A stretch of DNA of 64,000 nt from Cytophagales bacterium (GTDB lineage Bacteria; Bacteroidota; Bacteroidia; Cytophagales; UBA9547): the NCBI GenBank assembly GCA_044357485.1, contig JBIKPL010000001.1, forward strand, positions 2,988 through 66,987. The letters run 5' to 3'. The position numbers and the translations under genes were made by a program. Of this stretch, positions 1 through 56,376 are shown in pieces. The stretch's first letter is position 1, and each line of letters opens with the position of its first letter. A model generated the notes under the pieces. That model was not told where the DNA came from and made no database searches. It worked only from the letters and a program-made list of their open reading frames with translations.

Positions 1-2407
1 TATTAGGGGTAACGGTAATGCTTTGGCTCCAAACCTTGATTCCTAAAACACTATTTCCATCAATAAACATGAATTTACCTGTACCATTCGTATGGTCTTT
101 GGCATTATAAGCCCAAGTATTATTGGTGTTGTCTGATACGATATTGTATTTGCCACCAACACCAGCAGGAAAATTGCCAATCGTGTAGGCGTAGCCTGTT
201 GTGAAACCTGTATTTCCTGAACTAAAATCACCATTGGTAATAAGATTAGGACCTAATTTACCTGTTTTTAAGATATAAGTTCCTGGAGATTTGGCTGTAT
301 AATTGATGGCAAAGGAAGTATCTGCCACGTTTTCTTTTTTACTCCATTTGTAATAATCATTTCCTGCTGGTCCTGTTAAAGTTTGGTTAATGACCGCCCC
401 TTCACAGTATAATTTATCAACGCCAAGAGAAGGTTTGGCACAATCATCATCTATAATTGTGTACGTAGTAGATTTGATACCAAGGTTACAAGTTGTTAGT
501 GAAGTACTTAAATCACCCGTTGCAGCAACGATATTAAATTTTAGGGTTTCAGCACTTTCAGGAACAAGGTCATCGACTACTGTAAAAGGTAATGGAACTC
601 CTGTGATTGTTGTACCATCATAAATACCCGCTGGTATAGTTATGGTGGTTTGGGTGAGGGTATAATCTGTACCAATAGTAGCAGTGGTAGTTACCGCAAT
701 GGTCACGGTAGTTGGGTTAACAATTTTACCCAAAACAATTAACATAGGTTTGTTGGTTGGTGACGATTCAACCGTTGTATAGGTGCCTGCATTAAAGGCA
801 ATGTAGGGATTAACCGTCACCAAAGCATTGCTTGAAAATGTACCAACACAATTTAAATCACTCACAGCAGTAAGCACATAGTTGCCTGTGAAAGAAGGCG
901 TTACACTAAACACATATGGACTAGTAGCAAGGTTTGAAATTGTTTTAGGAATGATGCCATCGGTATAGGTAATACTCCAAGGACTTGTGCCAGTAAAAGT
1001 GGCCGTTAGATTCGTGCTTGCACCTGCACAAATGGTGTTTACACCAGTAAGTGTGGCCGTTGGCAGCACATCTGCGACCCTGCCTAAGCTAAAATAATAG
1101 CCTGTTGCAGCCTTAAAATCTACATCAAATTCTACCCATTGCGAAGCCACATTGAAATTGCTTGGCGCAATTAAAGTTGCACCTGAGGCAAATGTGCCAT
1201 CACCATCTACCATTAATCGATAACTGTTTAAGCTATTACAACCAGTGGCTAAAGTAACCCCAGCAAGTGAAAGTCTTACTTTAACCGTTCCAACTGTACC
1301 GACTTCTTGTGATCGCCAAACCCTTTTTATGCGGGCAATAATTGGAGCTGCAAAATCAACCACACCAGCGCTACTCAAGGCGGTATTGTCGTCACCCCAT
1401 GTTAAAAATGATTTGTCCGACACAAAAGAATTGCCATTTAAAAGATTGGTCGTGGCAATAGCCCCCAAAGCCATCGTCACTTTACTTTCTACCTGTTGAC
1501 TTGTGCCTTGTTTTTGATTTAAGGCACTGGCATCATCTCGGCCAATACCTGCCACGTGATTTTGGTAAACAACACTTTTGTTCCAAATATTGGTAAGGTC
1601 AGAAGCTAAGTAATCAATAGGGCTAGCGGTATTTCCTAAGGTGATGCCATATTTAATACCCAAATAACTTTCCACTTTTCTTCTGTTGGTATAGCTTAAA
1701 TGGCTATTATAATAGATAATTTCTGCAATATGTCCTTGAAATGTATACAAGCCCCCAATGTCGGCCCCAATTGAAAAGTCACCCAATTTTGTTGGATCAA
1801 GGACTATAGGAGAAGCAAAAACTTTTGAAAACTCAAATAGTCCGTTTACATTAAGAGAATCGTTGATGGTATTAGAGTTAGCCGAACCAATAAATGACAA
1901 AGGGTTTACAATGGTGGTGCCTATATTTCTACCGCTCGGTGCCACATTGTTTTTAGGAAAATCAAAACGCAAATAACCATTAGGCGCTTCTATTTCCCAA
2001 GTGGTTCTGTTGGTGGCAGAATTTTGATCCCATTTGGCAATGACATCATTGTTGGCTACATCAATTGGAAGTTCTTTGGTGAATACCACAAAAAATGAAT
2101 TGTTTGAAGCACTCATAAACCTAGATCCCAATACTTGGGCATTGGCATAAAGAGAAGAGGAGTTGTTGAGATACACCGTAGGATTAAAGTTTAAGCCTGC
2201 AGGAACCAACGTTGGAATTCCTCTGACAGCATTGGCATGTACACCGCCCACCACTTGGTTATTCCAAGCGGTTAAGGTTGTGCCGACCAAGGGTACATTG
2301 CCATCGGCTTTATGCCATGAGGTTAAACTTGTTGCGACGCCACCTGGACTTTGGGCTTTTACCAATAATGAAGTCGAAATAAAAACGAGTAGTATAAAAT
2401 TTTTCAT
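1..2407 (-). CDS. Large secreted cell-surface/adhesin-like protein, N-terminal ~802 aa only (C-terminus lies beyond the window start)
   Basis: Absent from the ORF track because it has no in-window stop. ATG at 2407-2405 (reverse strand) reads MKNFILLVFISTSLLVKAQSPGGVATSLTSWHKADG... The same frame is still open at position 58 (..GNSVLGIKVWSQSITVTPN), and only short ORFs exist in the other frames. Has a signal peptide, a LamG-like N-terminal region typical of giant Bacteroidota surface proteins, and a Calx-beta-like segment (TIGTDYTLTQTTITIPAGIYDGTTITGVPLPFTVVDDLVPESAETLKFNI). Confidence 0.75.
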   Translation of the reverse strand, partial: MKNFILLVFISTSLLVKAQSPGGVATSLTSWHKADGNVPLVGTTLTAWNNQVVGGVHANAVRGIPTLVPAGLNFNPTVYLNNSSSLYANAQVLGSRFMSASNNSFFVVFTKELPIDVANNDVIAKWDQNSATNRTTWEIEAPNGYLRFDFPKNNVAPSGRNIGTTIVNPLSFIGSANSNTINDSLNVNGLFEFSKVFASPIVLDPTKLGDFSIGADIGGLYTFQGHIAEIIYYNSHLSYTNRRKVESYLGIKYGITLGNTASPIDYLASDLTNIWNKSVVYQNHVAGIGRDDASALNQKQGTSQQVESKVTMALGAIATTNLLNGNSFVSDKSFLTWGDDNTALSSAGVVDFAAPIIARIKRVWRSQEVGTVGTVKVRLSLAGVTLATGCNSLNSYRLMVDGDGTFASGATLIAPSNFNVASQWVEFDVDFKAATGYYFSLGRVADVLPTATLTGVNTICAGASTNLTATFTGTSPWSITYTDGIIPKTISNLATSPYVFSVTPSFTGNYVLTAVSDLNCVGTFSSNALVTVNPYIAFNAGTYTTVESSPTNKPMLIVLGKIVNPTTVTIAVTTTATIGTDYTLTQTTITIPAGIYDGTTITGVPLPFTVVDDLVPESAETLKFNIVAATGDLSTSLTTCNLGIKSTTYTIIDDDCAKPSLGVDKLYCEGAVINQTLTGPAGNDYYKWSKKENVADTSFAINYTAKSPGTYILKTGKLGPNLITNGDFSSGNTGFTTGYAYTIGNFPAGVGGKYNIVSDNTNNTWAYNAKDHTNGTGKFMFIDGNSVLGIKVWSQSITVTPN

Positions 2408-3050
2408 AAGCTTTAAATTTAATAAAGTATCGAATATTAAAACAAGGCGTTTAAAAGTTAGCATTTCAATGATAGCAAATGCTATCTCGTTGGTTGTACG
2501 GGGATTATATTGACAATGTTAATGAAATTTTCGAATTTTTTTATCTATACGGTGACAAATTAAAAGTAGTTATATAATTATGCGAAAATTTTATTTATTT
2601 GTAATGTAATTAAATTGTTACTATTTAGTTTCGTTATACTTTAAAATCTTTTTTTTGATTAAAATTGTTAAAATTAATTGATTTATGCTTATGATTTGTG
2701 CTGTAAATGGGCCATTGAAATTAATCTGATTCAAATGCTAGTACCTAGCAAAATATAGTTGATTTTATTTATATCTAATACATTTTGAGCGTTTTAATAC
2801 TATTTTTATTATTGTCTGGCTATTGTTAATTGCTTTATGGGAGATTGTTTAGGTAATATGGAAAGACAATTTGCTTGTTATTTTACCCAACATATTGAAT
2901 ACATGCTTTCATTAGCTTTCGTAACCAATATAAATCAAGATGGCATGCAACATGTATTTGGTGAGAAGGAAAGGTAGGGAGATAGTCCGAAATCGTTTTC
3001 GTGCACCATTCCAAAGCCAATTTTTCCATGCTTAGTTTCGCAACATCTTA

Positions 3051-3080
3051 TTGCTTCCCCATAAAAAATATGTATTTTTG
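3051..3080 (+). promoter_or_regulatory. Candidate Bacteroidota sigma-A promoter for ruvB (-33 TTG / -7 TAnnTTTG)
   Basis: TTG at 3051-3053, a 19-nt spacer, then TATTTTTG at 3073-3080, 20 nt upstream of the ruvB ATG. Same geometry as the box at 8281-8310. Confidence 0.3.
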
Positions 3081-3099
3081 AACAAGCAATAAAATCACT

Positions 3100-4125
3100 A
3101 TGCGCGAAGATTATTTGAATGCTGACAACGAAAACTTGTCTTCAAATGAAAAAGAAATTGAAAGAGCACTTAGACCCTTGTCTTTTAGCGATTTTGAGGG
3201 GCAACAAAAAACCGTTGATAACCTCAAAATATTTGTAAGTGCGGCCAAACAAAGGGGGGAAGCACTTGACCATATTTTATTACATGGCCCTCCAGGTTTA
3301 GGAAAAACCACACTATCGCATATTATTGCCAACGAATTGGCTTCAAGCATTAAAATCACTTCTGGTCCGGTGCTTGATAAACCAAGTGATTTGGCTGGTT
3401 TATTAACCAACTTGGAACCTAATGATGTGTTGTTTATCGATGAAATTCATAGGCTTAGTCCAATCGTAGAGGAGTATTTATATTCCGCTATGGAAGATTA
3501 TCGCATTGATATCATGCTCGATTCTGGTCCAAATGCTAGAACGGTTCAAATTTCATTAAGCCCTTTTACCCTTATTGGGGCTACTACCCGTGCAGGCTTA
3601 TTGACCTCCCCATTGCGTGCAAGGTTTGGCATCAATGCCCGCTTAGAATATTATGATGCCAAATTATTGACCAGCATTGTCATGAGATCATGTGCCATCT
3701 TAGGCACCCCAATCGAAGAAGATGGTGCTTATGAAATTGCCAGAAGAAGCAGAGGCACTCCACGTATTGCCAATAATCTTTTAAGAAGAACCAGGGATTT
3801 TGCCCAAATAAAAGGCAACGGAAAAATTACCGTGGCCATAGCAGAAATGGCGCTTGAAGCGCTTGATGTTGATCAAAATGGCTTAGATGAAATGGACAAT
3901 CGCATTTTATTGACCATCATCAATAAATTTAAAGGGGGGCCGGTTGGGCTTTCCACCATTGCTACTGCTTGTGGTGAAGAAGCAGAAACCATTGAGGAAA
4001 TGTATGAACCATTCTTGATTCAAGAAGGCTATCTTAAAAGAACTTCTAGGGGTCGTGAGGCCACTGAACTAGCCTATAAACATCTAAATATTGTACCTAG
4101 ACTCAAGCCTGGAACACTTTTTTAG
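3100..4125 (+). CDS. ruvB: Holliday junction branch migration DNA helicase RuvB
   Basis: 341 aa. Walker [10 protein letters not shown], Walker B FIDEIHRL, RuvB-type AAA+ core and C-terminal winged-helix region. Full-length family resemblance. Confidence 0.95.
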
Positions 4126-4135
4126 GTGAATGTTT

Positions 4136-4151
4136 TATGACTTCGGTCATA
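4136..4151 (+). terminator. Stem-loop with cUUCGg-type tetraloop 11 nt after the ruvB stop
   Basis: tatgac-ttcg-gtcata: perfect 6-bp stem with a TTCG loop. No strong T-tract follows, so terminator function is uncertain. Confidence 0.3.
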
Positions 4152-4263
4152 GTTTACTTAAAATTTGTCACCAATATTGATTCAAAAGGTGCCCTATGTT
4201 AAAGATTTATATGGATATATTTAAAGTTTTTTATATCTTGCTAATATTAAATAGGATATTGTA

Positions 4264-5577: not shown

Positions 5578-5888
5578 AGTATGTTAATTAATGATAAGTC
5601 TATTACAATACAAAAAAATTATGGCTCTAAATGATTTTGTATGGGCAAATAATATTGATTATGTTTTTGGTAATACCAAACTGAGCGGTATTAAAACCAT
5701 TTTTGTTTGGTGATTGCATTTTAATTGGAACATTAAATTATGACTTTAATAGTGTTACATCTCTTTAAGTAATTACCTACAAACAAATTTAATTATAGCC
5801 ATAAGGTAGGTGTAATTCGCTTTTCGTTAGCGGGAGAGGCTTTGTTTGAGCATCCCGAAAAAATCGGGACGAGTACCGATCACGCGAC

Positions 5889-6059
5889 CAATGTCGTTAA
5901 GTTAAGGAAAAAAATCAGCGATAATCCGTTATATCCTCTTGATCCGCGTTCCAAGTTTTTATTCTTTGACAAAGAATAAAAACTTGGAACACAGATTTGG
6001 CGGATTAAGCGGGTTATCACGGATTTTAAAGTATCAAAATGCTTAACTTAACGACATTG
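5889..6059. repeat. MITE-like nested palindromic element, copy A (171 bp)
   Basis: Perfect 18-bp terminal inverted repeats: caatgtcgttaagttaag (5889-5906) and cttaacttaacgacattg (6042-6059). Perfect central 18+1+18 palindrome at 5951-5987. Internal aatccg/gatccgcg motifs. Flanked by cacgcgac (5881-5888) and cacacgac (6060-6067). A second copy lies at 47284-47457 in inverted orientation. Confidence 0.75.
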
Positions 6060-6160
6060 CACACGACACGAAGGGAAACGCCCTAATTCATTTATTTAAT
6101 ATCAATCAACCCTACCCACAACAAATCATCTACCACCAACAAATGGAATAGGGCACAATA

Positions 6161-7720
6161 TTATTCGGCCCCAATTCCCAAATAGGTTCTGATTTTTTCT
6201 TTTTCGAACTTCAGTTGAGCTTCTTCTTCTTTGGTAAATAAAGATACTACAATACCGATGATAAAAGCTGCTGTCATTGAAACAATCGCAGGGTTTTTAA
6301 GTGGGAATATAGCGGTATCATTTTTAAAAATATCAACCCAAACGGTAGGGCTCAATACAATTAATACAATAGAAATGATAGCGCCAGACAATATGCTCCA
6401 AGCAGCCCCTTGGGTAGAGAATTTTTTCCAAACAATTGACATAATGAGCGCTGGAAAGTTAGCACTTGCCGCAATTGAGAAGGCTAATCCAACCATAAAG
6501 GCAACATTTTGTCCTTTAAAAAGTAAGCCCAATGAAATGGCCAAAATGCCTAAACCTATGGTCGCTTGTTTGGCTACTTTTACTTCGCCTTTTTCATCGG
6601 AAACGCCTTTTTTAATAACGTTTACATACAAATCATGCGATAAAGTAGAGGCACCAGAAAGGGTTAAACCAGCAACAACCGCAAGAATCGTGGCAAATGC
6701 CACCGCTGCAATAAAGCCCATAAACAAATTCCCTCCGGTAGCTTCCGATAGCAATATCGCTGACATATTTCCACCCGCATCAATGGTAGCAATGGCCTCA
6801 CGACCTACAATGGCAGCAGCAGCAAATCCAATAACAAAGGTTAAAATATAGAAATAACCAATAAATCCAGTGGCAACAAATACAGATTTACGTGCTTCTT
6901 TGGCGCTAGGTACGGTATAAAAACGCATCAAAATATGCGGTAATCCAGCGGTGCCTAACATCAAGGCCAAACCTAAAGAAATAGAATCTAAAGGATTAGC
7001 AATTTGTCCGCCAGGCGACAATGCTTCAATTCCGTAATCATCGGCTACTTTTTTAAAGATGGCTACTAAGTTAAAATCAAATTTAGCCAACGCTAAAATC
7101 ACCAACAAAGTGGCTCCACCTAGCAATAGCACCGCTTTGATGATTTGTACCCAAGTAGTGGCCAACATCCCCCCAAACAACACATAACTTACCATTACAG
7201 CACCCACAATAATTACCGCAACATTGTAATCGATGCCGAAAAGTTTTTGCACCAAACCACCTGCACCAACCATTTGCGCAATTAAATAAAAGGTAATGGT
7301 GGCAATGGAGCCAAATGCTGCTGCGATTCTAATTGGTCTTTGTTGTAGACGAAAGGCAACAACATCGGCAAAGGTATATTTACCTAAATTTCGCAAAGGT
7401 TCGGCTACTAAAAACATAATTAAAGGCCAACCCACAATAAAGCCGATAGAATAAATTAAGCCATCGAATCCTTTCATGGCTACCATACCGGCAATACCTA
7501 AAAATGAGGCGGCACTCATGTAATCACCCGCCAAGGCTAAGCCATTTTGAAAACCAGTAATACTACGACCAGCAGCATAAAATTCAGAGGTTGTCTTTGT
7601 TTTTTTGGATGCCCAATAAGTAATGCCCATGGTAATGGCCACAAAAACGAAAAACATGCCTATCGATGCCCAATTAGGTTGTCCGATAGCGGAGACTTGA
7701 AGTAAAATGGTATATAACAT
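6161..7720 (-). CDS. actP: Cation/acetate symporter (sodium:solute symporter family)
   Basis: 519 aa polytopic SSF-type transporter directly downstream of a DUF485 gene, the classic yjcH-actP arrangement. Confidence 0.8.
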   Translation of the reverse strand: MLYTILLQVSAIGQPNWASIGMFFVFVAITMGITYWASKKTKTTSEFYAAGRSITGFQNGLALAGDYMSAASFLGIAGMVAMKGFDGLIYSIGFIVGWPLIMFLVAEPLRNLGKYTFADVVAFRLQQRPIRIAAAFGSIATITFYLIAQMVGAGGLVQKLFGIDYNVAVIIVGAVMVSYVLFGGMLATTWVQIIKAVLLLGGATLLVILALAKFDFNLVAIFKKVADDYGIEALSPGGQIANPLDSISLGLALMLGTAGLPHILMRFYTVPSAKEARKSVFVATGFIGYFYILTFVIGFAAAAIVGREAIATIDAGGNMSAILLSEATGGNLFMGFIAAVAFATILAVVAGLTLSGASTLSHDLYVNVIKKGVSDEKGEVKVAKQATIGLGILAISLGLLFKGQNVAFMVGLAFSIAASANFPALIMSIVWKKFSTQGAAWSILSGAIISIVLIVLSPTVWVDIFKNDTAIFPLKNPAIVSMTAAFIIGIVVSLFTKEEEAQLKFEKEKIRTYLGIGAE

Positions 7721-23025: not shown

Positions 23026-24021
23026 CTAAGGTTTAAACGGAAGTTCTTTAATTGGTCCTAGGGTATGAATACTTGGGTGAGCAGGTACCACTGGCTTATC
23101 TGCGACCACTTCATAATGATTTTGTGAAATTACAGAATTATTTGGAATATGTGTTGGTCCTTCGATAGTCCAATCTTTGGTTTCTTTTTTCTCAAAACGA
23201 CATGTGTTGCAAATAAAATCTTCTACCTCACCCCATTGATCCATTCTAGCAGTTACCCGTAGAATTTCTTCTCCACGCATCCAAACATTGGTTTTACCGC
23301 AACATTTATCACAGGAACGATGTGCTTTCATAGGTTTGGTAAACCATACTCTATTTTTGAAACGGAATGTTTTATCGGTTAAGGCTCCTACTGGGCAAAC
23401 ATCAATTACATTTCCAGAAAACTCATTGTCAATAGAATGTTGAATATAGGTACTAATTTCGGCGGCATCGCCTCTGCCAAGAATACCATGTACACGTTGT
23501 TTGGTCAATTGATCGGCTGTAAATACACACCTGTAGCACAAAATGCAACGGGTCATGTGTAATTGCACATAAGGACCAATATCTATTTTTTTGAATGTTC
23601 TTCTAGGAAAATCATACCTGGTACTTTGTACACCATGTTTATAGCCTAGGTTTTGCAAATCACATTCCCCGGCTTGGTCACAGATAGGGCAATCAAGTGG
23701 ATGGTTAATCAATAACATTTCAACAACCCCTTTTCTGGAAGCAATTACTTCAGGTGAGGTTTCGTTTTCAACGACCATACCATCCATTACCATCGTACGA
23801 CAAGAAGCCACAGGTTTTGGCATCGGACGAGGATCTTTTTCAGAACCTTGAGTAACTTTAACAATACAAGTACGACATTTACCACCCGAACCTTCTAGCT
23901 TTGAGTAATAACACATCGCAGGAGGAACATGTTTTCCTAACTGACGGGCAGCTTGTAGAATAGTGGTTCCTGGTGCCACCTCTACTACATCTCCATCGAT
24001 TGTTACTTTAAATAGATCCAT
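23026..24021 (-). CDS. nuoG: NADH-quinone oxidoreductase subunit G, short form (Fe-S N-terminal module only)
   Basis: 331 aa. 2Fe-2S region CYYSKLEGSGGKCRTC, HPLDCPICDQAGECDLQ and CILCYRC...CPVGAL cluster motifs. No molybdopterin-like C-terminal domain. Confidence 0.88.
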   Translation of the reverse strand: MDLFKVTIDGDVVEVAPGTTILQAARQLGKHVPPAMCYYSKLEGSGGKCRTCIVKVTQGSEKDPRPMPKPVASCRTMVMDGMVVENETSPEVIASRKGVVEMLLINHPLDCPICDQAGECDLQNLGYKHGVQSTRYDFPRRTFKKIDIGPYVQLHMTRCILCYRCVFTADQLTKQRVHGILGRGDAAEISTYIQHSIDNEFSGNVIDVCPVGALTDKTFRFKNRVWFTKPMKAHRSCDKCCGKTNVWMRGEEILRVTARMDQWGEVEDFICNTCRFEKKETKDWTIEGPTHIPNNSVISQNHYEVVADKPVVPAHPSIHTLGPIKELPFKP

Positions 24022-24026
24022 TTTTT

Positions 24027-24047
24027 GTTTTCAGTTTTCAGTTTTCA
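24027..24047. repeat. Three perfect tandem copies of the heptamer gttttca in the nuoF-nuoG spacer
   Basis: gttttca x3 followed by a degenerate gttcag. Begins 6 nt upstream of the nuoG start codon on the coding strand. Confidence 0.8.
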
Positions 24048-24138
24048 GTTCAGAGTTTTAAAAGACTCAAAACTGAATTACAGTTTTATATTTGATAGAT
24101 GAATGTCTATGTATAATTCTTTTACTAAACATTCAACA

Positions 24139-26012: not shown

Positions 26013-26020
26013 ATTTAGAG

Positions 26021-26111
26021 TATTCAGTATTCAGTTTTCAGTTCTCAGTTTTCAATTCTCAATTCTCAGTTAACAGTTCTCCGTTAACAGTTAACAGTTT
26101 TCAGATTTCGG
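26021..26111. repeat. Array of 13 consecutive degenerate heptamers (tNNtcag type) directly upstream of nuoE
   Basis: tattcag tattcag ttttcag ttctcag ttttcaa ttctcaa ttctcag ttaacag ttctccg ttaacag ttaacag ttttcag atttcgg, with strict 7-bp register. Confidence 0.85.
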
Positions 26112-47271: not shown

Positions 47272-47283
47272 TAGCCATAATTA

Positions 47284-47457
47284 AAGTCGTTTAGTTAACA
47301 AGTCTTGTTACTTTAAAATCCGTGAAGATTCGCTTAATCCACCAAATTTGTGTGCAACTTTGTTTTTATTCTTTGTCAAAGAATAAAAATTTAGAACGCT
47401 GATTGAGCGGATTGCACAGATTGACGCTGATTTTATCCTTAACTAAACGACATTGAT
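47284..47457. repeat. MITE-like nested palindromic element, copy B (174 bp, inverted relative to copy A)
   Basis: Terminal inverted repeats gtcgtttagttaa and ttaactaaacgac. Central palindrome at 47363-47389 (tttttattctttg t caaagaataaaaa). Flanked by a perfect 9-bp direct repeat ccataatta (47275-47283 and 47458-47466). Confidence 0.75.
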
Positions 47458-47508: not shown

Positions 47509-48759
47509 ATGATAAAATCAATCATACAAGAATCAAATACGGGTACTAAAATCGTACTTACTTGTTTACTTTTACTTGTAATGTCGTTATTCGCACCACT
47601 CAAATTTACCGGTTTGGGCATTATTGTGTTGGCCATCGCTTGGTTTTTCAGTAGTTCTTTTACCACCAAAATAGTCCATTTTAAAACCAACTATTTTCAA
47701 TACTTGTTTTTTGCTTTGTATGCTTGGTATATCCTCGGATTGTTATATACCCAAAACCTAAGTTATGGAGGCTCCTTGATAGAAACCATGCTTTCTATAT
47801 TTGCTTTCCCACTTATTTTTAGTTCTTTGGCTACTTTTAGAATTAATGTCGTAACCTTTATTTTAAATTTTTTTGTGTATTGTGCCTGTTTAATTTCTAT
47901 TTTTTGTGTTGGTAAAGCTTGCTTCAATTACGCTTCTTGTGCTGATATTGATTTGCTTTATTACCATAAATTGGCTAAAAATGTTGATTTTTCTGCCATT
48001 TATCTTTCGCTTTATATTGCCATGGCCTATTTGATAGTGTTACTGCAATGGCTCCCTGCGGCCATAGTAGGCTCCTTAAAATCTAAAATTGTTTCATTTG
48101 CATTGCTTGGATTTTTCTTCCTGTTTTTGATTTTATTGTCTTCCAAAATGATCATTGCCTGCATTACTGCACTTACGATGATTTTGGTATTTATTCGCAT
48201 TCTTCCCCATAAAGCTTCTCTTACCTCAATATTGATTGCCATCGCCATTTTAATGGGGGTCATGCTAATGGTTGCCAATCTTAAAGTAACCAGGCAACGT
48301 TTTCAAAATGTAGAATTAAAAGCTTTTAAATACACCGATGTGGATGTGAATGGCTTAACGGGTAGAATTGCGATGTGGACATGTGCCAAAGATGTGATAA
48401 AAAACAACTTTTGGCTTGGCGTAGGCACAGGTGATATCGATGATGAATTGATTGCCGAATACCACAAAAAAGATTTTAGAGTGGGGTACTTTTGGAAATA
48501 CAATGCCCATAATCAGTATATTCAAACATTTTTGGGGCAAGGTTTTGTTGGGTTCTGCTTGTTAATGGCTTTGTTTATAATTCCATTTATCTATGGATGT
48601 CGAAAACGTGATTATTTATACCTCTCGTTTTGTGTGCTTTTTTTTAGTTTATGTATTACAGAAACAACTTTTACCAATGTGAAAGGCGTGTGCTTTTTCG
48701 CATTTTTTAATTCTTTTTTTATATTTCAGGGCTTCCTTAAAAATCGCCCGCTTAATTGA
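47509..48759 (+). CDS. O-antigen ligase family (Wzy_C domain) membrane protein
   Basis: 416 aa polytopic with a YNAHNQYIQTFLGQGFVG motif. Confidence 0.6.
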   Translation: MIKSIIQESNTGTKIVLTCLLLLVMSLFAPLKFTGLGIIVLAIAWFFSSSFTTKIVHFKTNYFQYLFFALYAWYILGLLYTQNLSYGGSLIETMLSIFAFPLIFSSLATFRINVVTFILNFFVYCACLISIFCVGKACFNYASCADIDLLYYHKLAKNVDFSAIYLSLYIAMAYLIVLLQWLPAAIVGSLKSKIVSFALLGFFFLFLILLSSKMIIACITALTMILVFIRILPHKASLTSILIAIAILMGVMLMVANLKVTRQRFQNVELKAFKYTDVDVNGLTGRIAMWTCAKDVIKNNFWLGVGTGDIDDELIAEYHKKDFRVGYFWKYNAHNQYIQTFLGQGFVGFCLLMALFIIPFIYGCRKRDYLYLSFCVLFFSLCITETTFTNVKGVCFFAFFNSFFIFQGFLKNRPLN

Positions 48760-49732
48760 TATACACTTCTAATAAAGTAGCATTGGTAGCGTCTAGTGCT
48801 AGTATTTTTAAATCATTGGGGATAAGATAAGTATCGCCAGTATATATAAATACTTCCTCTTGTTCGTTGTATTTTAAAGTTAAACTACCTTCCACGCATA
48901 TCAATATTACAAACGAATCTTTCGAGGTATAGTCGAGGGTTAGTGGTTTATCTATTGAAATAATATTGGTAGTAAAGTACATACAATGTACCAAGTTGTG
49001 GGTACTGTTTTTTTGTCGAGAATAATGTAAAATATGGTCTGTATGGGCATTGAAGTCAATACACTTTAAGGCCTCTTCTGTATGTAATTCTCTTTTATTT
49101 CCTTCACTGTCTACACGATCAAAATCATAAATTCGGTAGGTAGTGTCTGAAGTTTGTTGAATTTCTGCAATACAACATCCTTTTCCAATATAATGTACTT
49201 TTCTTCCTGGTATATACAATGCATCGCCTGCAAGTACATATTCGTAATTTAATAATTGGTCTAAGGTATTTTGAGCAAGATGAAATAAATATTCTTCTTC
49301 TGTGATTGTTTTATTAAACCCCAAATTGATTTTGGCTCCTTCATCGGCTTGTATTACATACCACATTTCAGTTTTGCCACTTGCATTTGTCAACACACTT
49401 GCTAATTCGTCATTGGGGTGCACTTGAATCGATAAATCTTCATTAGCATCTAAAAATTTAATGAGCAACGGAAACTCATCACCATGCATTTCATATACCT
49501 TTTTACCAACCAGCTGGTCTTTATATTGTTTAATTAAGGTGGTTAAGCTCAATCCTTTTAAATTACCGTTTTCTACTATCGATACATTCCCTTCCACTGC
49601 CGATATCTCCCATGATTCCCCACAATTAAGAGTGGCGTCAATTTTTTTCCCTAAAATAGTGTTGATTTTTTGCCCTCCCCATATTTTTTCTTTAAAAATA
49701 GGACTGAACTTTAATGGGTATAATGGCTTCAT
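48752..49732 (-). CDS. manA: Mannose-6-phosphate isomerase, class I
   Basis: 326 aa. KIWGG, QVHPND and KTEMWYV motifs of type I PMI. Confidence 0.8.
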   Translation of the reverse strand: MKPLYPLKFSPIFKEKIWGGQKINTILGKKIDATLNCGESWEISAVEGNVSIVENGNLKGLSLTTLIKQYKDQLVGKKVYEMHGDEFPLLIKFLDANEDLSIQVHPNDELASVLTNASGKTEMWYVIQADEGAKINLGFNKTITEEEYLFHLAQNTLDQLLNYEYVLAGDALYIPGRKVHYIGKGCCIAEIQQTSDTTYRIYDFDRVDSEGNKRELHTEEALKCIDFNAHTDHILHYSRQKNSTHNLVHCMYFTTNIISIDKPLTLDYTSKDSFVILICVEGSLTLKYNEQEEVFIYTGDTYLIPNDLKILALDATNATLLEVYIN

Positions 49733-50011
49733 ATTGATACGTGTGCGAGACTATTGTTTAATTTTAAACAGTTGTTGTGATAAATTGTAACAATTTCTAA
49801 AATTAGTTTTTTTTTCTGTTTATCGTCTACCTTCTTTTATTTATTTATTGAATATATAAAGGTCTATAGTATTGTTGGCAAATTGATAACGTAAAGTGGT
49901 ACATTCTTATTTGAATAAATCTATGACAAAATCAACATTTATAAACAAATGAATAGGGCAAACCTTCTTCCCAAGTGTATTGAGAGGCATGAGTATAAAA
50001 ATCGTAAAACA

Positions 50012-50104
50012 ATAAATTAAAATTAGACCCATAAAAAAACCTTCCCAATAGCGAGAAGGTTTTTTTATGGGTCAATATTATAAGGGCAATATTAAAAATG
50101 CCAT
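50012..50104. repeat. 93-bp direct repeat, left copy (island boundary)
   Basis: 91/93 identical to 54371-54463. Contains the hairpin at 50028-50071 and an orphan copy of the last 13 nt (..W H F stop) of the nagB-II CDS. Confidence 0.9.
50028..50071 (-). terminator. Rho-independent-type terminator hairpin (left copy), downstream of the XRE gene
   Basis: cccataaaaaaaccttc / gaaggtttttttatggg form a 17-bp perfect stem with a 10-nt loop. Confidence 0.6.
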
Positions 50105-50153
50105 AACATCTTATCCTTAAAATTTACAATTTAAAATATTTTTCCAGTATTTA

Positions 50154-50501
50154 TTACTTTTTCATTGCTATCATCAAGGCTATTTGGGCTTCAAGAGAGA
50201 CGATTAATTTGTCTTTTGATTTAATAATATCATCCAATAATGTGAAATCATTGACGGTTGAATTAAAATTGTTGCTATTGGCTGAATTATAGAAAAAGTT
50301 CTTTTTATCGAAAGCAATAATATCTTCAATGCTTATATTTAAAAAATCGGCTATGTCTTGTAGTCTAGTGAGGGTAATATCTGCTTCATCGTTTTCTAAT
50401 TTGCTATAGCTTGCTTGTGAAATCTTAAGATGCTCTGCTATGGTTTCTTGTTTAAAGCCTTTGAACTCTCTGAATTTTCTTATAGAATAGCCAACCTTCA
50501 T
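50154..50501 (-). CDS. XRE-family helix-turn-helix transcriptional regulator
   Basis: HTH_3 pattern IRKFREFKGFKQETIAEHLKISQASYSKLENDEADITLTRLQDIADFL. ATG at 50501 (MKVGYS...) is preferred over the TTG track start at 50534. Confidence 0.8.
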   Translation of the reverse strand: MKVGYSIRKFREFKGFKQETIAEHLKISQASYSKLENDEADITLTRLQDIADFLNISIEDIIAFDKKNFFYNSANSNNFNSTVNDFTLLDDIIKSKDKLIVSLEAQIALMIAMKK

Positions 50502-50548
50502 AATTGCAGTGTTTATGTTTACTTCTATTTGCAAGTTATAAATTATTC

Positions 50549-50571
50549 ATATCAGTAATATTATATCAGTA
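50549..50571. promoter_or_regulatory. Operator-like direct repeats in the XRE / PD-(D/E)XK divergent intergenic region
   Basis: atatcagta occurs at 50549-50557 and again at 50563-50571 (14-bp period). Confidence 0.25.
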
Positions 50572-50646
50572 GATATTTATTATGTTGATTTATCAAAAAG
50601 CTAGGTTTGTTTAGGGCATTTCCATTATTAATTTAAACTAAAAAAT

Positions 50647-51687
50647 ATGATTAAACCTAACATTTTTGACATTGCAACAAAAGAATTAAACCAAGATGCT
50701 TTTATTACTTGGTTGTTATTGTGGGGTGGGAATAATGAGCCTGAAACTGATGACGAAAAAAAGTTAATCCTATGCGGCAAAGAATTTACTAAGGCACTCA
50801 TCACTAAAAAATACCCGAATTTCAATGAGCCAATTGAAACTGTAGATGCTGGAAGACAATGGGATAACATTGATGTATATGCAAAAATCAATAATAAATA
50901 CTTAATTATTATTGAAGACAAAACTAATACAGGGCAACGATCGGGTCAACTTAGTAGATATAAATTAATTGCTGAAGAATGGAGAAAAAAATATGCTCCA
51001 GAATATGAAGAAGTTATTTGTATCTATCTTAAAACTGGTAATGAAACACAAGAAAGTCTTGATGTTGTAATACAAGATGGTTTTGAAATTTACAACAGAA
51101 CAGATTTTATTAACTTAGTACAACAACACGATATTCGAAATGATATTTATTCAGATTTTAAAGCCCGTCTTTTAAAGCTAGAAAGTATTAATAATGAATG
51201 GATTGATAAAGTAATTAACAATTGGAACGGTAATGATTGGCAAGGTTTTTTTCAAAACTTAGAAAAACAGAATGTGATTGATAGATGGTTTAGGGTTAAT
51301 AACCCTAATGGAGGATTTTGGGGTGCGTTGTTCGCTTGGCGTGAATACAATGGAATACCTGTTTACCTTCAAATAGAAGAAGGCAAACTATGTTTTAAAA
51401 TAAGTACTCGTACAGCTGACAGTACTAATATTCCAGAAAATCTTAATAAAAGCGAAACAAGAAATAGGTTTCATCAATTGATTTTAGAAGCTGCTTCAAA
51501 ACAAAATTTAAGCTCAATAAGAAAACCAGACAGGTTTGGTCATGGCAATTACATGACCATAGCCATTATAGATGCCAAAAATTGGCTTGGCGATCAAAGC
51601 AAAATCATCCATCAACACCAAGTCATTGAAAATCTAAATTTATACAAATCATTTATTGACGATTTTGTAACAGCTTCAAATATATAA
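50647..51687 (+). CDS. PD-(D/E)XK nuclease-superfamily protein (PF14281/PDDEXK_4-like N-terminal domain)
   Basis: 346 aa. N-terminal NIFDIATKELNQDAFITWLLLW, then NIDVYAKINNKYLIIIEDKTNT (D ... E-x-K) and QLSRY. The Trp-rich C-terminal half is of unknown type. Confidence 0.5.
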   Translation: MIKPNIFDIATKELNQDAFITWLLLWGGNNEPETDDEKKLILCGKEFTKALITKKYPNFNEPIETVDAGRQWDNIDVYAKINNKYLIIIEDKTNTGQRSGQLSRYKLIAEEWRKKYAPEYEEVICIYLKTGNETQESLDVVIQDGFEIYNRTDFINLVQQHDIRNDIYSDFKARLLKLESINNEWIDKVINNWNGNDWQGFFQNLEKQNVIDRWFRVNNPNGGFWGALFAWREYNGIPVYLQIEEGKLCFKISTRTADSTNIPENLNKSETRNRFHQLILEAASKQNLSSIRKPDRFGHGNYMTIAIIDAKNWLGDQSKIIHQHQVIENLNLYKSFIDDFVTASNI

Positions 51688-51710
51688 TAATAACCCTTTT
51701 AAAAACTATT

Positions 51711-53069
51711 ATGAAAAAAATAATCTTTTTAGTTGTACTACTAATAGCTAGTATTACAACGTTTGCACAACGGTTTGTTACTGGTAATATTGAGTATAAT
51801 ATTATTACAGGAACGACCAATGTTGAAGTCAAATCCAAAACTCCAACTGGTATTGCCTTTATTGGATATACTGGACAGGTAATAATACCTTTAACTGTTG
51901 TAAATAATAGCATTAATTATTCAGTAACAAGTATTGGGTCGAGTGCATTTTCTAACTCTTCGGAATTAACAAGTGTAATTATTCCTAACTCAGTAACAAG
52001 TATTGGATCGTTTGCATTTGCTCGCTGTATGGGTTTAACAAATATCACTATTCCTAACTCGATAACAAGTATTGGGTCGTATGCATTTTCAGAGTGTAAG
52101 GGATTAAAAAGTATAACTATTCCTAATTCAGTAACAAATATTGCACAAAATGCATTTACAAGCTGTACAGGACTAACAAGTGTCATTATCCCTAACTCAG
52201 TAACAAGTATTGGGTCGAGTGCATTTGAAAAATGTACCAGTTTAACAAGTATTATTATTCCTAATTCAGTAACAAGTATTGGGTCGAATGCATTTGAAAA
52301 CTGTACTAGTTTAACAAGTGTCACTATTTCTAACTCGGTAACAACTATTGGAGAAAGTGTATTTCGTTTCTGTACCGGATTAACAAATGTCATTATCCCT
52401 AACTCAGTAACAAGTATTGGTATGGTGGCATTTGCTGGCTCCGGTTTAACAAGTATAACTATTCCTAATACAGTAACAAATATTGGGGGTAATGCATTTC
52501 AAGGCTGTACAGGCCTAACAAGTGTCTCTATTCCCAATTCTGTAACAATTATTGATTGGAATATATTTAATGGCTGTACAGGATTAACAAGTATCACTAT
52601 TCCTAATTCAGTAACATATATTGGTTCTAGTGCATTTAAAGGCTGTAGCGGATTAGAATCAGTAATAGTTGACTTGTCAACACCATTAACGATTTCAGAA
52701 GGCACATTTAATGGTGCTTATAGTTCTATATTATATGTACCGAAAGGCTCTAAATCAGCATATCAAGCTGCTACAGAATGGTCAAAGTTTACTAATATAG
52801 TTGAATTACCTTCAACAGGTATCGAGTCATTAATCAATTCAAATTTTAATATTTTCCCTAACCCAGTCACTGACAATGTAACCATTACATTAGAAAAAGA
52901 CGTTTCATGTATTGTATCAATTTATGATTTACAAGGAAATGTGCTTGCTACAAAATTAATTGAAGGCAATATTACCAATATTTCTACTACTAATTTGGCT
53001 AGTGGTTTGTATCAGGTAAAAATTATTTCTGATAAAGGTGTTGCGGTACAGCAGTTAGTTGTTAAATAA
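51711..53069 (+). CDS. BspA-type leucine-rich-repeat surface protein with T9SS C-terminal sorting domain
   Basis: Signal peptide, then about 14 LRR_5-type 23-aa repeats (IPNSVTSIGSxAFxxCTxLTSV). C-terminal Por_Secre_tail pattern (FNIFPNPVTDNVTI...IYDLQGNVL...LASGLYQVKI). Confidence 0.85.
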   Translation: MKKIIFLVVLLIASITTFAQRFVTGNIEYNIITGTTNVEVKSKTPTGIAFIGYTGQVIIPLTVVNNSINYSVTSIGSSAFSNSSELTSVIIPNSVTSIGSFAFARCMGLTNITIPNSITSIGSYAFSECKGLKSITIPNSVTNIAQNAFTSCTGLTSVIIPNSVTSIGSSAFEKCTSLTSIIIPNSVTSIGSNAFENCTSLTSVTISNSVTTIGESVFRFCTGLTNVIIPNSVTSIGMVAFAGSGLTSITIPNTVTNIGGNAFQGCTGLTSVSIPNSVTIIDWNIFNGCTGLTSITIPNSVTYIGSSAFKGCSGLESVIVDLSTPLTISEGTFNGAYSSILYVPKGSKSAYQAATEWSKFTNIVELPSTGIESLINSNFNIFPNPVTDNVTITLEKDVSCIVSIYDLQGNVLATKLIEGNITNISTTNLASGLYQVKIISDKGVAVQQLVVK

Positions 53070-53220
53070 AAAATATAGGCTTTTTAGCTTAATCATTGCG
53101 CTACTTTTGGTTACTGGCACCAATAAGATTACTTACTTAATGTCAAAATCACAGAACAGCTAGTTTAAAGAATTTTACATATTTGTTTCAGTGTAATATT
53201 TTAAGTAATACCATATATAA

Positions 53221-53682
53221 TTATTTAATAGTCCAATCTATATCCTTAAATATATAAGGGAAAGAGCATATACTTTGTATCATACTTTTAGAAATTAACT
53301 TTACTTCTGTTTCAATAAATATGCTTACTTCATCAAGTGTAAAATGAATTTTATTTGTAAATTTTCTTTTTAAAACTGCCCATATTTTTTCAGCCGGATT
53401 TAATTCTGGACTATAAGGTGGGAGAAAAACAAGTCCAATGTTTTCAGGAATTACCAAAGATTTTGCTTTATGAAATGCACCATTGTCTAAAACAATTATT
53501 TTAAATTCCTTAGGCCTATGTCTAGAAAACTCATCAAGATATATTTGAAATGTTCCTGCATTGCAATTAGGAAATTCTATTAAAAAGCTATCTCCATCGA
53601 TTGGAGAAAATGAACCAAACAAATAAGAACTTTTAAAAACTTGATGAAATGGACAAATCGGCTTCACACCCTTAGCAGTCAA
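53221..53682 (-). CDS. IS630 transposase orfB (DDE catalytic domain)
   Basis: DNGAFH and PYSPELNPAEKIW motifs. The frame stays open upstream of the track start through ..YFQDESRFGLF.. (first catalytic D) and overlaps the end of orfA in the -1 frame. Confidence 0.75.
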   Translation of the reverse strand: MTAKGVKPICPFHQVFKSSYLFGSFSPIDGDSFLIEFPNCNAGTFQIYLDEFSRHRPKEFKIIVLDNGAFHKAKSLVIPENIGLVFLPPYSPELNPAEKIWAVLKRKFTNKIHFTLDEVSIFIETEVKLISKSMIQSICSFPYIFKDIDWTIK

Positions 53683-53771
53683 TGATTTACCATTTCTTGT
53701 AAAAAGACCAAATCTGCTTTCATCTTGAAAATATAAATTGAAAGAATTATATTTTGGATTCGATAAAAATA

Positions 53772-54290
53772 TTATTTCTTGAATTTTTTGAGAGAAGTTT
53801 TTTTGAAAACCTCTACAGCTTGTTCATTTTTACTTACATGGCTTTTTCTTGCAACTTTAATTTTTGCACCAAAGTGTCTTTTTACATATTTCAATATAGT
53901 TATATATTTGATATTCAACGAAAACTCCGAGTTTACCCACTCCTGAAGTTCAATAAAACCACGCAGTCCATTTTGAGGGTCATTTAGCTTTTCATTTAAT
54001 TTTTTATGTACTGCTTCAGAAATAATACTTTTCTTAAACCCAATTCGACCATGAACTAAAAGTTGCTCAATGCCATAATCTGAATATATTTTACGCCATT
54101 TTACAATACTATTATGATTTATTCCGGTTTTATTAGATAAATCACGTTTTGAAATACCACCTTCTGATTCATGGTTTTTTATCTCTATTAAAATTTCAAT
54201 TCTCTTAGCTATAAGTTTTCCAGCATTTCTTTGTAATGCTTTAAGTTCTTTGATTGATTCTTTGATAGAAAGTTGATATGGTTTTGCCAT
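53772..54290 (-). CDS. IS630 transposase orfA (HTH DNA-binding part)
   Basis: 172 aa with winged-helix/HTH patterns. Ends ..FKKTSLKKFKK at A7 and A6 runs (53798-53804, 53784-53789) where a -1 shift joins orfB. Confidence 0.75.
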   Translation of the reverse strand: MAKPYQLSIKESIKELKALQRNAGKLIAKRIEILIEIKNHESEGGISKRDLSNKTGINHNSIVKWRKIYSDYGIEQLLVHGRIGFKKSIISEAVHKKLNEKLNDPQNGLRGFIELQEWVNSEFSLNIKYITILKYVKRHFGAKIKVARKSHVSKNEQAVEVFKKTSLKKFKK

Positions 54291-54370
54291 TTTATAAATA
54301 TTATATAGTCCATTGTTAATAAAAAAAATCCAATAAAAAAATATTGGACTATATATTATTTACAATTGGT

Positions 54371-54463
54371 ATAAATTAAAATTATACCCATAAAAAAACC
54401 TTCCCGATAGCGAGAAGGTTTTTTTATGGGTCAATATTATAAGGGCAATATTAAAAATGCCAT
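54371..54463. repeat. 93-bp direct repeat, right copy (island boundary; overlaps the 3' end of nagB-II)
   Basis: 91/93 identical to 50012-50104. Its last 13 nt are the final codons W-H-F-stop of CDS 54451-56376. Confidence 0.9.
54387..54430 (-). terminator. Rho-independent-type terminator hairpin of the nagB-II gene (right copy)
   Basis: Same 17-bp stem as 50028-50071, 20 nt downstream of the stop codon. Confidence 0.65.
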
Positions 54464-56376
54464 CTAACGTATGCTTCCATGGCGGCATATTCTGCTAAGC
54501 CAAGTTTGTTGTAAACTTCAGCCGTACCAGCATTTCTTACCTCAGCTCTTTGCCAAAATTCTCTACTGTCATTGCCTTGGAATACCACCCCGTCTTTTTG
54601 AGATTGGTGTTTGAAAATACCATAACGTTTTTGTAAAACTTGCTCTGGACTCATTGGGATTGACATTTCAATTTCCCAAATATCCCATTCATGCCAAGCT
54701 CCTCTATATAACCAAACCCAACAATCTTTCATGAAAGGTTCATCTTTAAGGCGCTTACATGCTTCAAAAATAGCATCTAAACAAACTTTATGCGTGCCAT
54801 GTGGGTCAGCTAAATCGCCAGCAGCATATATTTGATGTGGTTTCAGTTTACGAATCAAATCCATGGTGATTTGAATATCTTCTTCTCCTACCGGTTTTTT
54901 CTCTACAGTACCTGTTTCGTAAAACGGTAAATTCATGAAATGAGCATTTTCATCAGGAATTCCTACGTATCTACAAGTGGCTTTGGCTTCTCCTTTTCTG
55001 ATTAAACCTTTTACATAGCGAACGCTTTCTGAATCTTTCTCACCTTTTTTGGCACTTAAGAATGCTTTTGCATCCGTAAAGATTTTATTAGCCCCTGTAT
55101 TGTCTAAACCAAATTTAGTATTATAGTCACAAACAAAATCAGAGAACCTAAGCGCTTCATCATCATGTACTGCAATATTTCCAGAGGTTTGGTAACCTAC
55201 ATGAACATCATGGCCTTGCTCGTGTAAACGTAAAAATGTACCACCCATAGAGATGATGTCATCATCAGGATGTGGAGAAAATATTAATACTGTTTTTTTA
55301 ATGGGCGTAGCTCTTTCAGGACGATTAGCATCATCGGCATTGGGTTTTCCTCCTGGCCATCCTGAAATCGTATTTTGCAATTGGTTAAATACGTTGATAT
55401 TGATTTCGTAAGCGGAGCCTTTTTGTGCTACCAAATCCCCTAAACCGTTGGCAATATATTCTGCTGTAGTAAGTTTTAAAATTGGTTTATCGAGGCTTAA
55501 TGCCATCATACACACCGCTTTTTTGGTGATTTCCTTGGTCCATTCTACTGGGCCAACCAACCAAGGGGTTTTAACTTTCATTAAATCAGCCGCGGCTGTT
55601 TCATCTAAAAAGAAAGTTGTGTTTGGATGATGTTGTAAAAAAGTAGATGGGCAATGTTCGGTTACTTCACCTTCACATGCTTTTTGCACAATTTTAGCTT
55701 TGCCTGCACCCCAAGCCATCAACACTACTCTTTTGGCATTCATAATTTGGTTTACCCCAAGGGTAATAGCCAAAGTAGGTACGTTTTCTAGTGTCCCAAA
55801 ATCAGGTGTTGCATCTACACGAGTGGTATAGTTCAATGAAACCAAACGTGTTTTTGATCCAATTTGAGAACCTGGTTCATTAAAACCAATATGGCCCGTT
55901 CCGCCAATGCCTAATACTTGCAAATCTAATCCACCTAAGGCATTAATTTTAGCTTCGTAGGCTTCGCAATATGCCTGAATTTGGTCTTTTCTCAAAGTAC
56001 CATCAGGCACATTGTAGTTTTCAGGAGCAATATCCACATGGTTAAAAAGTTGCTCTTTCATAAACCTTACATAACTCTGTACAGCATCTGGCTGCATAGG
56101 GTAATATTCATCAAGGTTAAAGGTTATGACGTTTTTAAAACTAAGCCCTTCTTCTTTATGAAGTCTTATCAATTCGGCATACATTCTTTTAGGTGTATTT
56201 CCGGTAGCAAGACCTAATATGCAAGGTTTGTTTTCTGCTTGTTTTTGTTTAATCAAATCAGCAATTTCTCTCGCTACCGCTTTAGATGCTTCTAAAGGAG
56301 AAGAGAAAATTTCAGATGGAACTTTTTCAAAGTTAACCGCTACACTATTAGATTGTGTATTAACATTTTGTGCCAT
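54451..56376 (-). CDS. nagB: Glucosamine-6-phosphate deaminase, long form (NagB domain fused to LmbE/PIG-L deacetylase-like domain)
   Basis: 641 aa. N-terminal NagB/6-phosphogluconolactonase fold (ILGLATGNTP, GIGGTGHIGFNEPGS). C-terminal LmbE motif IFSPHPDDDIISMGGT. Confidence 0.85.
   Translation of the reverse strand: MAQNVNTQSNSVAVNFEKVPSEIFSSPLEASKAVAREIADLIKQKQAENKPCILGLATGNTPKRMYAELIRLHKEEGLSFKNVITFNLDEYYPMQPDAVQSYVRFMKEQLFNHVDIAPENYNVPDGTLRKDQIQAYCEAYEAKINALGGLDLQVLGIGGTGHIGFNEPGSQIGSKTRLVSLNYTTRVDATPDFGTLENVPTLAITLGVNQIMNAKRVVLMAWGAGKAKIVQKACEGEVTEHCPSTFLQHHPNTTFFLDETAAADLMKVKTPWLVGPVEWTKEITKKAVCMMALSLDKPILKLTTAEYIANGLGDLVAQKGSAYEININVFNQLQNTISGWPGGKPNADDANRPERATPIKKTVLIFSPHPDDDIISMGGTFLRLHEQGHDVHVGYQTSGNIAVHDDEALRFSDFVCDYNTKFGLDNTGANKIFTDAKAFLSAKKGEKDSESVRYVKGLIRKGEAKATCRYVGIPDENAHFMNLPFYETGTVEKKPVGEEDIQITMDLIRKLKPHQIYAAGDLADPHGTHKVCLDAIFEACKRLKDEPFMKDCWVWLYRGAWHEWDIWEIEMSIPMSPEQVLQKRYGIFKHQSQKDGVVFQGNDSREFWQRAEVRNAGTAEVYNKLGLAEYAAMEAYVRWHF

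Follow-up and report, generated by a model that had tools for sequence, protein, structure and literature searches.

Cis-mobilizable elements (CIMEs) are islands that lack integration and transfer genes and are flanked by att-type repeats (PMC5704250). CIMEs and other elements related to ICESt1 and ICESt3 at fda of Streptococcus thermophilus are small, carry neither integration nor transfer genes, have direct repeats that take in the end of a conserved gene, and leave the target intact. At the 3' ends of tRNA and tmRNA genes, islands installed by an integrase, such as the ssrA islands of Dehalococcoides, have repeats that duplicate the 3' end of the target, accessory cargo, and empty sites in relatives. 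Campbell-type single crossover and homology-facilitated illegitimate recombination, which use host recombination only, likewise leave an insert bracketed by a duplicated homologous segment. Likeness to each of these systems is found in a locus of a Cytophagales bacterium, within a window of 64,000 nucleotides (the whole stretch analysed, from contig JBIKPL010000001.1 of assembly GCA_044357485.1), where a 4359-bp insert lies between the core genes manA and nagB and the 3' end of nagB, with its terminator, occurs as two 93-bp direct repeats. We describe this locus, from a freshwater lineage of Bacteroidota, as an integrase-less genomic islet that is small, real but fairly ordinary, and that does not overturn current understanding.

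Unlike the CIMEs at fda, the nagB islet has no known cognate integrase or related full-length element at its site, its 93-bp repeat is lineage-specific, no remnants of a recombination module are present, and the host belongs to Bacteroidota rather than Firmicutes. Unlike ssrA islands, its target is a protein-coding gene plus a terminator, it has no integrase, and it measured 3.1 kb before an insertion sequence (IS) was added. Relative to Campbell-type crossover and homology-facilitated illegitimate recombination, the nagB islet is marked by a short repeat, 93 bp being at the short end of the anchors used in experiments.

The insertion was delimited against a sister lineage, reached via the closest manA homologue (93% amino acid identity, P0121) and the sequences that cluster with nagB and manA at 90%. 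Six sister-lineage contigs (L165-L170), from five or six samples, share 85-90% nucleotide identity with the window, and two of them are syntenic with it from 39.9 kb to its end at 64 kb, a stretch of ~24 kb. In 6/6 contigs nagB (99% identical at the amino acid level) adjoins manA at a separation of 350-361 nt, and in 6/6 the window alignment breaks at 50104 and restarts at 54389. A single ~74-nt stretch of the sister lineage aligns to both window repeats and, in a multiple alignment, the outer flanks of the two copies, left of the left one and right of the right one, both run on into sister-lineage sequence. The only other indel in the syntenic stretch is a 178-bp element resembling a miniature inverted-repeat transposable element (MITE). 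Together, the junction alignments and the synteny define a discrete insertion of 4359 bp, accompanied by the duplication of 93 bp of native sequence. The first-pass annotation had read the locus as an insertion into the 3' end and terminator region of nagB and had pointed to an empty site, with manA and nagB adjacent and one copy of the 93-mer; both were found, the empty site in lineages 10-15% apart rather than in conspecific strains. Its description of a strain-variable slot holds insofar as occupancy differs between these two lineages, which is the only such comparison, the island-bearing contigs all representing one clone.

The sister-lineage arrangement, taken as ancestral, reads manA, promoter region, one bidirectional terminator and nagB, with both genes transcribed leftward. 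The two repeat copies differ at 2/93 positions, versus >20 positions at which the same stretch differs between lineages; hence, barring gene conversion that homogenizes the copies, the duplication long postdates the lineage split and the site was originally empty.

Exact matches to the nagB and manA proteins of the window were found only on contigs carrying the island. These contigs came from four samples and are 100% identical to the window wherever they overlap it, indicating one clone. An ENA assembly (L001/L003) built with k=141, longer than the repeat, covers both junctions, and a JGI contig (L004) independently covers the left junction, making misassembly very unlikely. Short-k Logan contigs stop exactly 30 nt (k-1) into the repeat or 30 nt beyond a single-nucleotide polymorphism (SNP); such ends were rejected as evidence for empty sites, being the de Bruijn breaks at repeat and SNPs that are expected with both copies present. 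The features of the locus are as follows.

48752-49732, minus strand: manA, class I mannose-6-phosphate isomerase, the left flanking core gene (TIGR00218, 152 bits)
50012-50104: left 93-bp repeat copy, the displaced nagB terminator region, contiguous on its left side with ancestral sequence
50026-50073: terminator hairpin of the left copy, now following the XRE gene (folding)
50092-50104, minus strand: orphan nagB 3' end, 13 nt ending ..A TGG CAT TTT TAA (sequence match)
50154-50534, minus strand: XRE-family helix-turn-helix regulator, 126 aa from a TTG start (HTH_3)
50647-51687, plus strand: PD-(D/E)XK nuclease-family protein, PDDEXK_4 (PF14281)
51711-53069, plus strand: BspA-type leucine-rich-repeat (LRR) protein with a C-terminal sorting domain of the type IX secretion system (T9SS) (LRR_5 and Por_Secre_tail)
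53209-53210: left TA target-site duplication of the IS630 element (comparison with a second copy on contig L088)
53211-54369, minus strand: IS630-family IS, 1159 bp, with imperfect terminal inverted repeats and two open reading frames (ORFs) (DDE_3 and NF033545; ends set against L088)
54370-54371: right TA target-site duplication of the IS630 element, its A being the first base of the right repeat (comparison with L088)
54371-54463: right 93-bp repeat copy, contiguous on its right side with nagB
54386-54431: bidirectional terminator hairpin of nagB (folding)
54451-56376, minus strand: nagB-PIG-L fusion, glucosamine-6-phosphate deaminase-like, 641 aa, the right flanking core gene (NF002557)

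The direct repeats were recovered at the coordinates first annotated and with the same identity (91/93). They differ by G at 50026 versus T at 54385 and by A at 50047 versus G at 54406, both within the left 36 nt; the 57 nt to the right of these do not differ. When each half of the 93-mer was searched with <=3 mismatches allowed, two copies were found in the window and 0 in 100 shuffles; in the DNA available it is therefore not a generic multi-copy intergenic repeat, the finding that would have spoken against a link with the island. A window-wide repeat scan returned no second long, high-identity direct repeat pair. The repeat boundaries were taken as sharp because extension of the pair leftward gave 13/30 identities, the 95th percentile of random pairs. 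Two wider searches added little: an exact 30-mer from the repeat had no match in the JGI metagenome collection, a result made uninformative by the absence of the source contig itself from the matches, and the hairpin pattern had 0 matches among viral contigs.

Each repeat does contain a terminator hairpin as first annotated, with a stem of ~20-21 bp (54386-54406 pairing with 54411-54431 in the right copy; 50026-50073 in the left) instead of the 17 bp given then. Folding energies on the nagB-sense strand were -36 to -37 kcal/mol (z = -7.5 to -8). The 5' arm of the stem includes an A7 run and the 3' arm a T7 run, so that the hairpin is readable as a terminator on both strands, and a G+C-containing stem-loop followed by a T-run, as in intrinsic (rho-independent) terminators, was found in both directions. 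A homologous hairpin lies downstream of nagB in a more distant relative (L099) and in all six sister-lineage contigs. The minus strand also bore out the reading of the gene end: the right repeat closes with A|TGG|CAT|TTT|TAA (W-H-F-stop), the final 13 nt of nagB, and the same 13 nt stand in the left repeat as an orphan, with no gene attached, 49 nt downstream of the XRE stop codon. The 93 bp comprise the 13-nt nagB 3' end, the terminator, and 15 nt past it, and the palindrome sits off-centre in the repeat, with flanks of 14 and 31 nt.

As to how the duplication arose, we favour, with a rough probability of 0.45, homology-driven host recombination with DNA of a very close relative, and not the action of an island-encoded integrase. 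The resident nagB terminator region would have recombined with a second, ~98% identical copy on incoming DNA, either through a single Campbell-type crossover with a circular molecule carrying the island and the 93-mer, or through a repair event that was homologous at the nagB side and illegitimate at the 50104/50105 junction; the IS630 element would have inserted later, at a TA on the inner edge of the right copy. The two copies share >15 states that the sister lineage does not have, the synonymous CAT codon within the 13 nt among them, which indicates that the second copy came from the window's own lineage or a very close relative and not from a roaming attP. At both mismatches the left copy has the sister-lineage state. 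This polarity is expected if the inner portion of the right copy arrived with the island, the crossover having fallen farther right in the repeat or within nagB. At ~140 other Bacteroidota nagB loci, the 8 kb downstream contained no duplicate of the gene's 3' end, so this gene end does not serve repeatedly as an att site. Inverted repeats at the two termini of the island were not significant (p ~0.08).

All island ORFs were scanned and no recombinase other than the IS630 DDE transposase was found, as the first-pass annotation had noted, and the island spacers (49, 112, 23, and 139 nt) leave no space for an integrase remnant. No integrase was found among the window ORFs checked (all of >=250 aa and most of >=180 aa), and a phmmer search of window ORFs with one Bacteroidota integrase gave no match, which is weak evidence alone. 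With no integrase or remnant in the island, none among the window ORFs checked, and a nagB 3' end that is not a recurrent target, the earlier interpretation of the repeats as attL/attR was not upheld. The insertion and the empty site are demonstrated; the att-site reading is not.

Several points weigh against homology-driven recombination. It leaves the initial joining of the island to a copy of the 93-mer unexplained, and the donor arrangement that it requires is so far unobserved. A duplicated gene 3' end around an island is the classic signature of site-specific integration, and 93 bp is a short RecA substrate. A single 64-kb window cannot exclude an integrase elsewhere in the genome, and gene conversion between the copies could have wiped out traces of a foreign attP. 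The mismatch polarity rests on two sites, the more distant relative L099 has the right-copy G at one of them, and a single island-bearing clone is in hand.

The leading alternative is a decayed or non-autonomous site-specific element, CIME-like, in which the 93-mers are attL and attR of a tyrosine integrase targeting the nagB 3' end; the element would have brought the last 13 nt and the terminator, restoring nagB, and its integrase would have been deleted or supplied in trans. The locus has much of the expected architecture: the direct repeats at the two ends of the insert carry a duplicated gene 3' end from a conserved gene, the target gene is intact, the cargo is accessory and defence-like, relatives hold an empty site with a single copy, and the mismatches are limited to one arm, as in hybrid att sites. 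Elements retaining attL and attR after loss of their integration genes are documented, which also counts in favour of this origin (PMC5704250). An element-encoded integrase, required for an island or an integrative and mobilizable element and absent by definition in a CIME, was not found, in the island or among the window ORFs checked, and the spacers of 49-139 nt leave no room for a pseudogene. Further, no integrated element, recognizable as a second nagB 3' end, was present at the ~140 other nagB loci, near-identity over 93 bp with lineage-specific non-coding states is unlike a transferable attP, and no phage or plasmid similarity was found except generic LRR matches. On present evidence we therefore regard att sites as doubtful, and as less likely than a homology-driven origin.

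An unlikely alternative is one-step illegitimate insertion at a staggered break, in which nicks 93 nt apart would have flanked the hairpin, foreign DNA would have been captured, and fill-in of the gaps would have left a true target-site duplication. This would account for sharp repeat boundaries and for the local origin of both copies without a recombinase, and a strong hairpin in the duplicated segment could stall replication or draw nucleases. However, we know of no bacterial mechanism that regularly yields ~90-bp duplications, the repeat is asymmetric around the palindrome (14 versus 31 nt), and both mismatches are one-sided and derived in the same copy, for which the chance under independent later mutation is ~0.04, a rough estimate of our own from two sites only.

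Less probable still is an old island that was present in the common ancestor and was deleted in the sister lineage by recombination of one 93-bp repeat with the other, an event that would give exactly the single-copy site observed. Scans with nagB were of little help in ordering the two states. Among genome contigs, 80 loci were found, one of them close (L006, cut inside nagB) and the others <=77% identical and non-syntenic; in metagenomes, relatives at 82-91% identity (L091, L092, L094, and L099) were found, and manA did not adjoin nagB in any of them. Downstream of nagB lies a T9SS pectate-lyase-like protein in L092, and the homologous terminator followed by convergent genes in L099; with such different neighbours, these two outgroups cannot tell which state came first. 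Against an ancestral island stands the 2/93 divergence of the copies versus >20 differences between lineages, which makes the duplication the younger event without continual gene conversion, and an initial insertion would be required in any case.

An artefact, in which assembly threaded a circular element through the shared repeat, or mobilization of the block by IS630 can be discounted almost entirely: such readings have in their favour a metagenomic source, the breaks of short-k Logan contigs within the repeat, and the position of IS630 at the repeat edge, but the k=141 assembly across both junctions and the second assembly across the left junction are all 100% identical, two SNPs distinguish the repeat copies, the single IS630 copy has its own TA duplications and inverted repeats, and the DDE transposase of the IS630 family makes 2-bp, not 93-bp, duplications.

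The IS itself resembles the IS630/Tc1-mariner family in its DDE_3 transposase, size (~1.16 kb), terminal inverted repeats, and TA target duplication, and differs from it in having a transposase in two frames separated by a -1 shift; the element is unrelated to the 93-bp duplication. Family membership was supported by DDE_3 (PF13358, 7e-19) and by NF033545, of which profile positions 11-133 and 166-287 are spread across the two ORFs. The ends read TACCA...AGTCCAAT. A second copy, on contig L088 from another metagenome and in an unrelated context, agrees with the window as far as ...CAATTGG TA and no further; this limit and the matching left end fix the element at 53211-54369. The right repeat begins with the A of the right TA, in agreement with the early remark that the IS ends within 1-2 bp of that repeat. 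Only one IS630 copy is present in the window, so the cargo is not IS-bracketed and was not mobilized as a composite transposon, a possibility that was rejected. IS630 was also rejected as the cause of the 93-bp duplication, being a single copy with a TA duplication of its own. Its own TA duplications and the L088 copy in a different context mark its arrival, at the inner edge of the right repeat, as an event separate from and later than insertion of the module.

Both IS630 ORFs (53772-54290 and 53221-53682) lie on the minus strand, the second in the -1 frame relative to the first, and the -1 frame is open back through the DE motif. Where the ORFs overlap (53683-53800), the A-rich slippery runs CAAAAAAAC and CAAAAAAT occur shortly before the first stop codon. 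The first ORF is present likewise in the L088 copy. From this arrangement of frames, a programmed -1 frameshift is likely, rather than a dead copy.

The cargo before the IS occupies 3104 bp (50105-53208), a compact 3.1-kb three-gene module in which the XRE regulator gene is divergent from the PDDEXK_4 nuclease gene, with the LRR/T9SS surface-protein gene beginning 23 nt downstream of the latter. The calls first made for manA, XRE, PD-(D/E)XK, LRR/T9SS, IS630, and nagB all agree with Pfam and NCBIfam. For XRE, gene callers chose an ATG start (115 aa; 50154-50501). Base composition sets the island apart only mildly: G+C content was 30.8% for the cargo and 27.3% for the IS, against 34.5% for the window, 33.4% for manA, and 38.2% for nagB, and G+C at third codon positions in the nuclease and LRR genes was below that of the flanking genes. 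The early impression of a visibly AT-rich island therefore holds weakly, the cargo standing only at the 8.5th percentile of same-size windows.

In the nuclease, residues D76, E90, and K92 are invariant across 40 homologues, and the structure model is confident (predicted local distance difference test score of 90). Fold searches returned weak matches only (E >= 6e-3), to the PD-(D/E)XK domains of Card1/Can2, NucS, and restriction enzymes; no PDB sequence matched the nuclease, and no characterized member of PDDEXK_4 was found. Against PADLOC, the nuclease gave a partial match (7.5e-8, residues 62-129) to the candidate PDC-S26, the remaining matches were generic helix-turn-helix matches, and no island protein had a full-length significant match to a PADLOC defence-system model. 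The LRR protein has the marks of T9SS cargo, namely a type A sorting domain (Por_Secre_tail, 2.4e-12; TIGR04183) and a hydrophobic N-terminus. Its 69-bp LRR units are just 63-79% alike, which lends no support to the surface variation first suggested.

Recurrence of the module was seen on a 1483-bp contig (L171; ENA ERZ28614158) from another lake metagenome, which matches 50444-51807 of the window at 78.7% nucleotide identity across the XRE 5' end, the divergent spacer, the nuclease gene (80% amino acid identity), and the start of an LRR-type secreted protein. Conservation that includes the divergent spacer indicates that the three genes act as one module, probably a self-regulated accessory one; the contig is too short to show where that module was inserted. 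More distant nuclease homologues (50-58% amino acid identity) gave 441 matches, many of them in Bacteroidota. They stand alone in defence islands, adjoined by Kiwa, Hachiman, AbiH, SLFN/Fic, and integrase genes, and XRE is not among their neighbours there. These surroundings agree with the defence content first proposed for the islet and make the nuclease a reasonable candidate for a defence gene under an XRE switch; given how widespread its family is in Bacteroidota defence islands, it is also a reasonable candidate for testing. Searches of island DNA against plasmids and phages returned generic LRR matches only, and a nuclease search of viral contigs gave no match. A separate observation concerns Empedobacter (L161-L163, around 6001-7020), in which the same PDDEXK_4 gene lies in a strain-variable neighbourhood adjoining a cluster for capsule export; one strain has other genes, among them a tyrosine integrase, in place of the right-hand neighbours.

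It is a long shot, and one that we rate as very improbable, that the XRE-nuclease-LRR unit, which is shared by at least two lineages, is a portable, recombinase-less cassette that inserts beside terminator hairpins and duplicates ~90 bp of its target. If so, the module would arrive with terminators at both ends and leave its neighbours undisturbed, by an undescribed mechanism that targets or duplicates terminators and is possibly coupled to a new defence or surface function.

The sequence of the occupied site suggests little cost to the neighbours. After the insertion, nagB would keep its C-terminus and its terminator; the gene is intact in the window, its protein being 99% identical to that of the sister lineage. 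The displaced left copy is predicted to terminate XRE transcription 49 nt past the stop codon and to shield the manA promoter region from read-through; the stretch upstream of manA (49733-50011) has a homologue in the sister-lineage intergenic region. Until the IS came in, the right copy would also have terminated the nuclease-LRR operon converging on nagB. Because the stop codon and the bidirectional terminator were duplicated, expression of nagB and manA should stay correct and the new genes should be insulated. The two repeats would also be a substrate for precise, RecA-dependent loss of the island. The locus thus offers a clean, fully delimited case of a small accessory module entering a conserved gene neighbourhood harmlessly, and it implies that attL/attR-like architecture is possible without any integrase, a caution for island calling from repeats only.

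Two relatives show other changes around nagB. In L099 (nagB 90% identical; 1430-4254 compared with 50-2260 of L001), the nagB terminator is followed by convergent genes for a 253-aa protein and a BatD-like protein, which in the window's lineage lie ~8 kb away, on the opposite side of nagB. The comparison implies inversion or rearrangement of the nagB block relative to L099, with one putative breakpoint at the nagB terminator. In L006, from a metagenome-assembled genome of the sister lineage (NASQAN2011_458_B_bin.12), nagB is 99% and an outer-membrane protein 97% identical at the amino acid level, and the DCC1-like gene between them 76%; this local mosaic suggests recombination in the nagB neighbourhood.

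The rest of the window encodes housekeeping functions and polysaccharide synthesis, including ruvB, the nuo operon, wzy, glycosyltransferases, MBOAT/AlgX, and gldB. Spacers of the nuo (NADH dehydrogenase) operon, at 24020-24062 and 26013-26104, contain heptamers repeated in tandem (TTTTCAG, TTCTCAG, and TTAACAG). The 178-bp MITE-like element lies at 47280-47457, between glycosyltransferase and wzy genes, and is absent from 6/6 sister-lineage loci. It is bounded by 19-nt terminal inverted repeats (ATTAAAGTCGTTTAGTTAA and TTAACTAAACGACATTGAT) and has a 13-bp palindrome inside, and a second, ~80% identical copy is located at 5886-6055.

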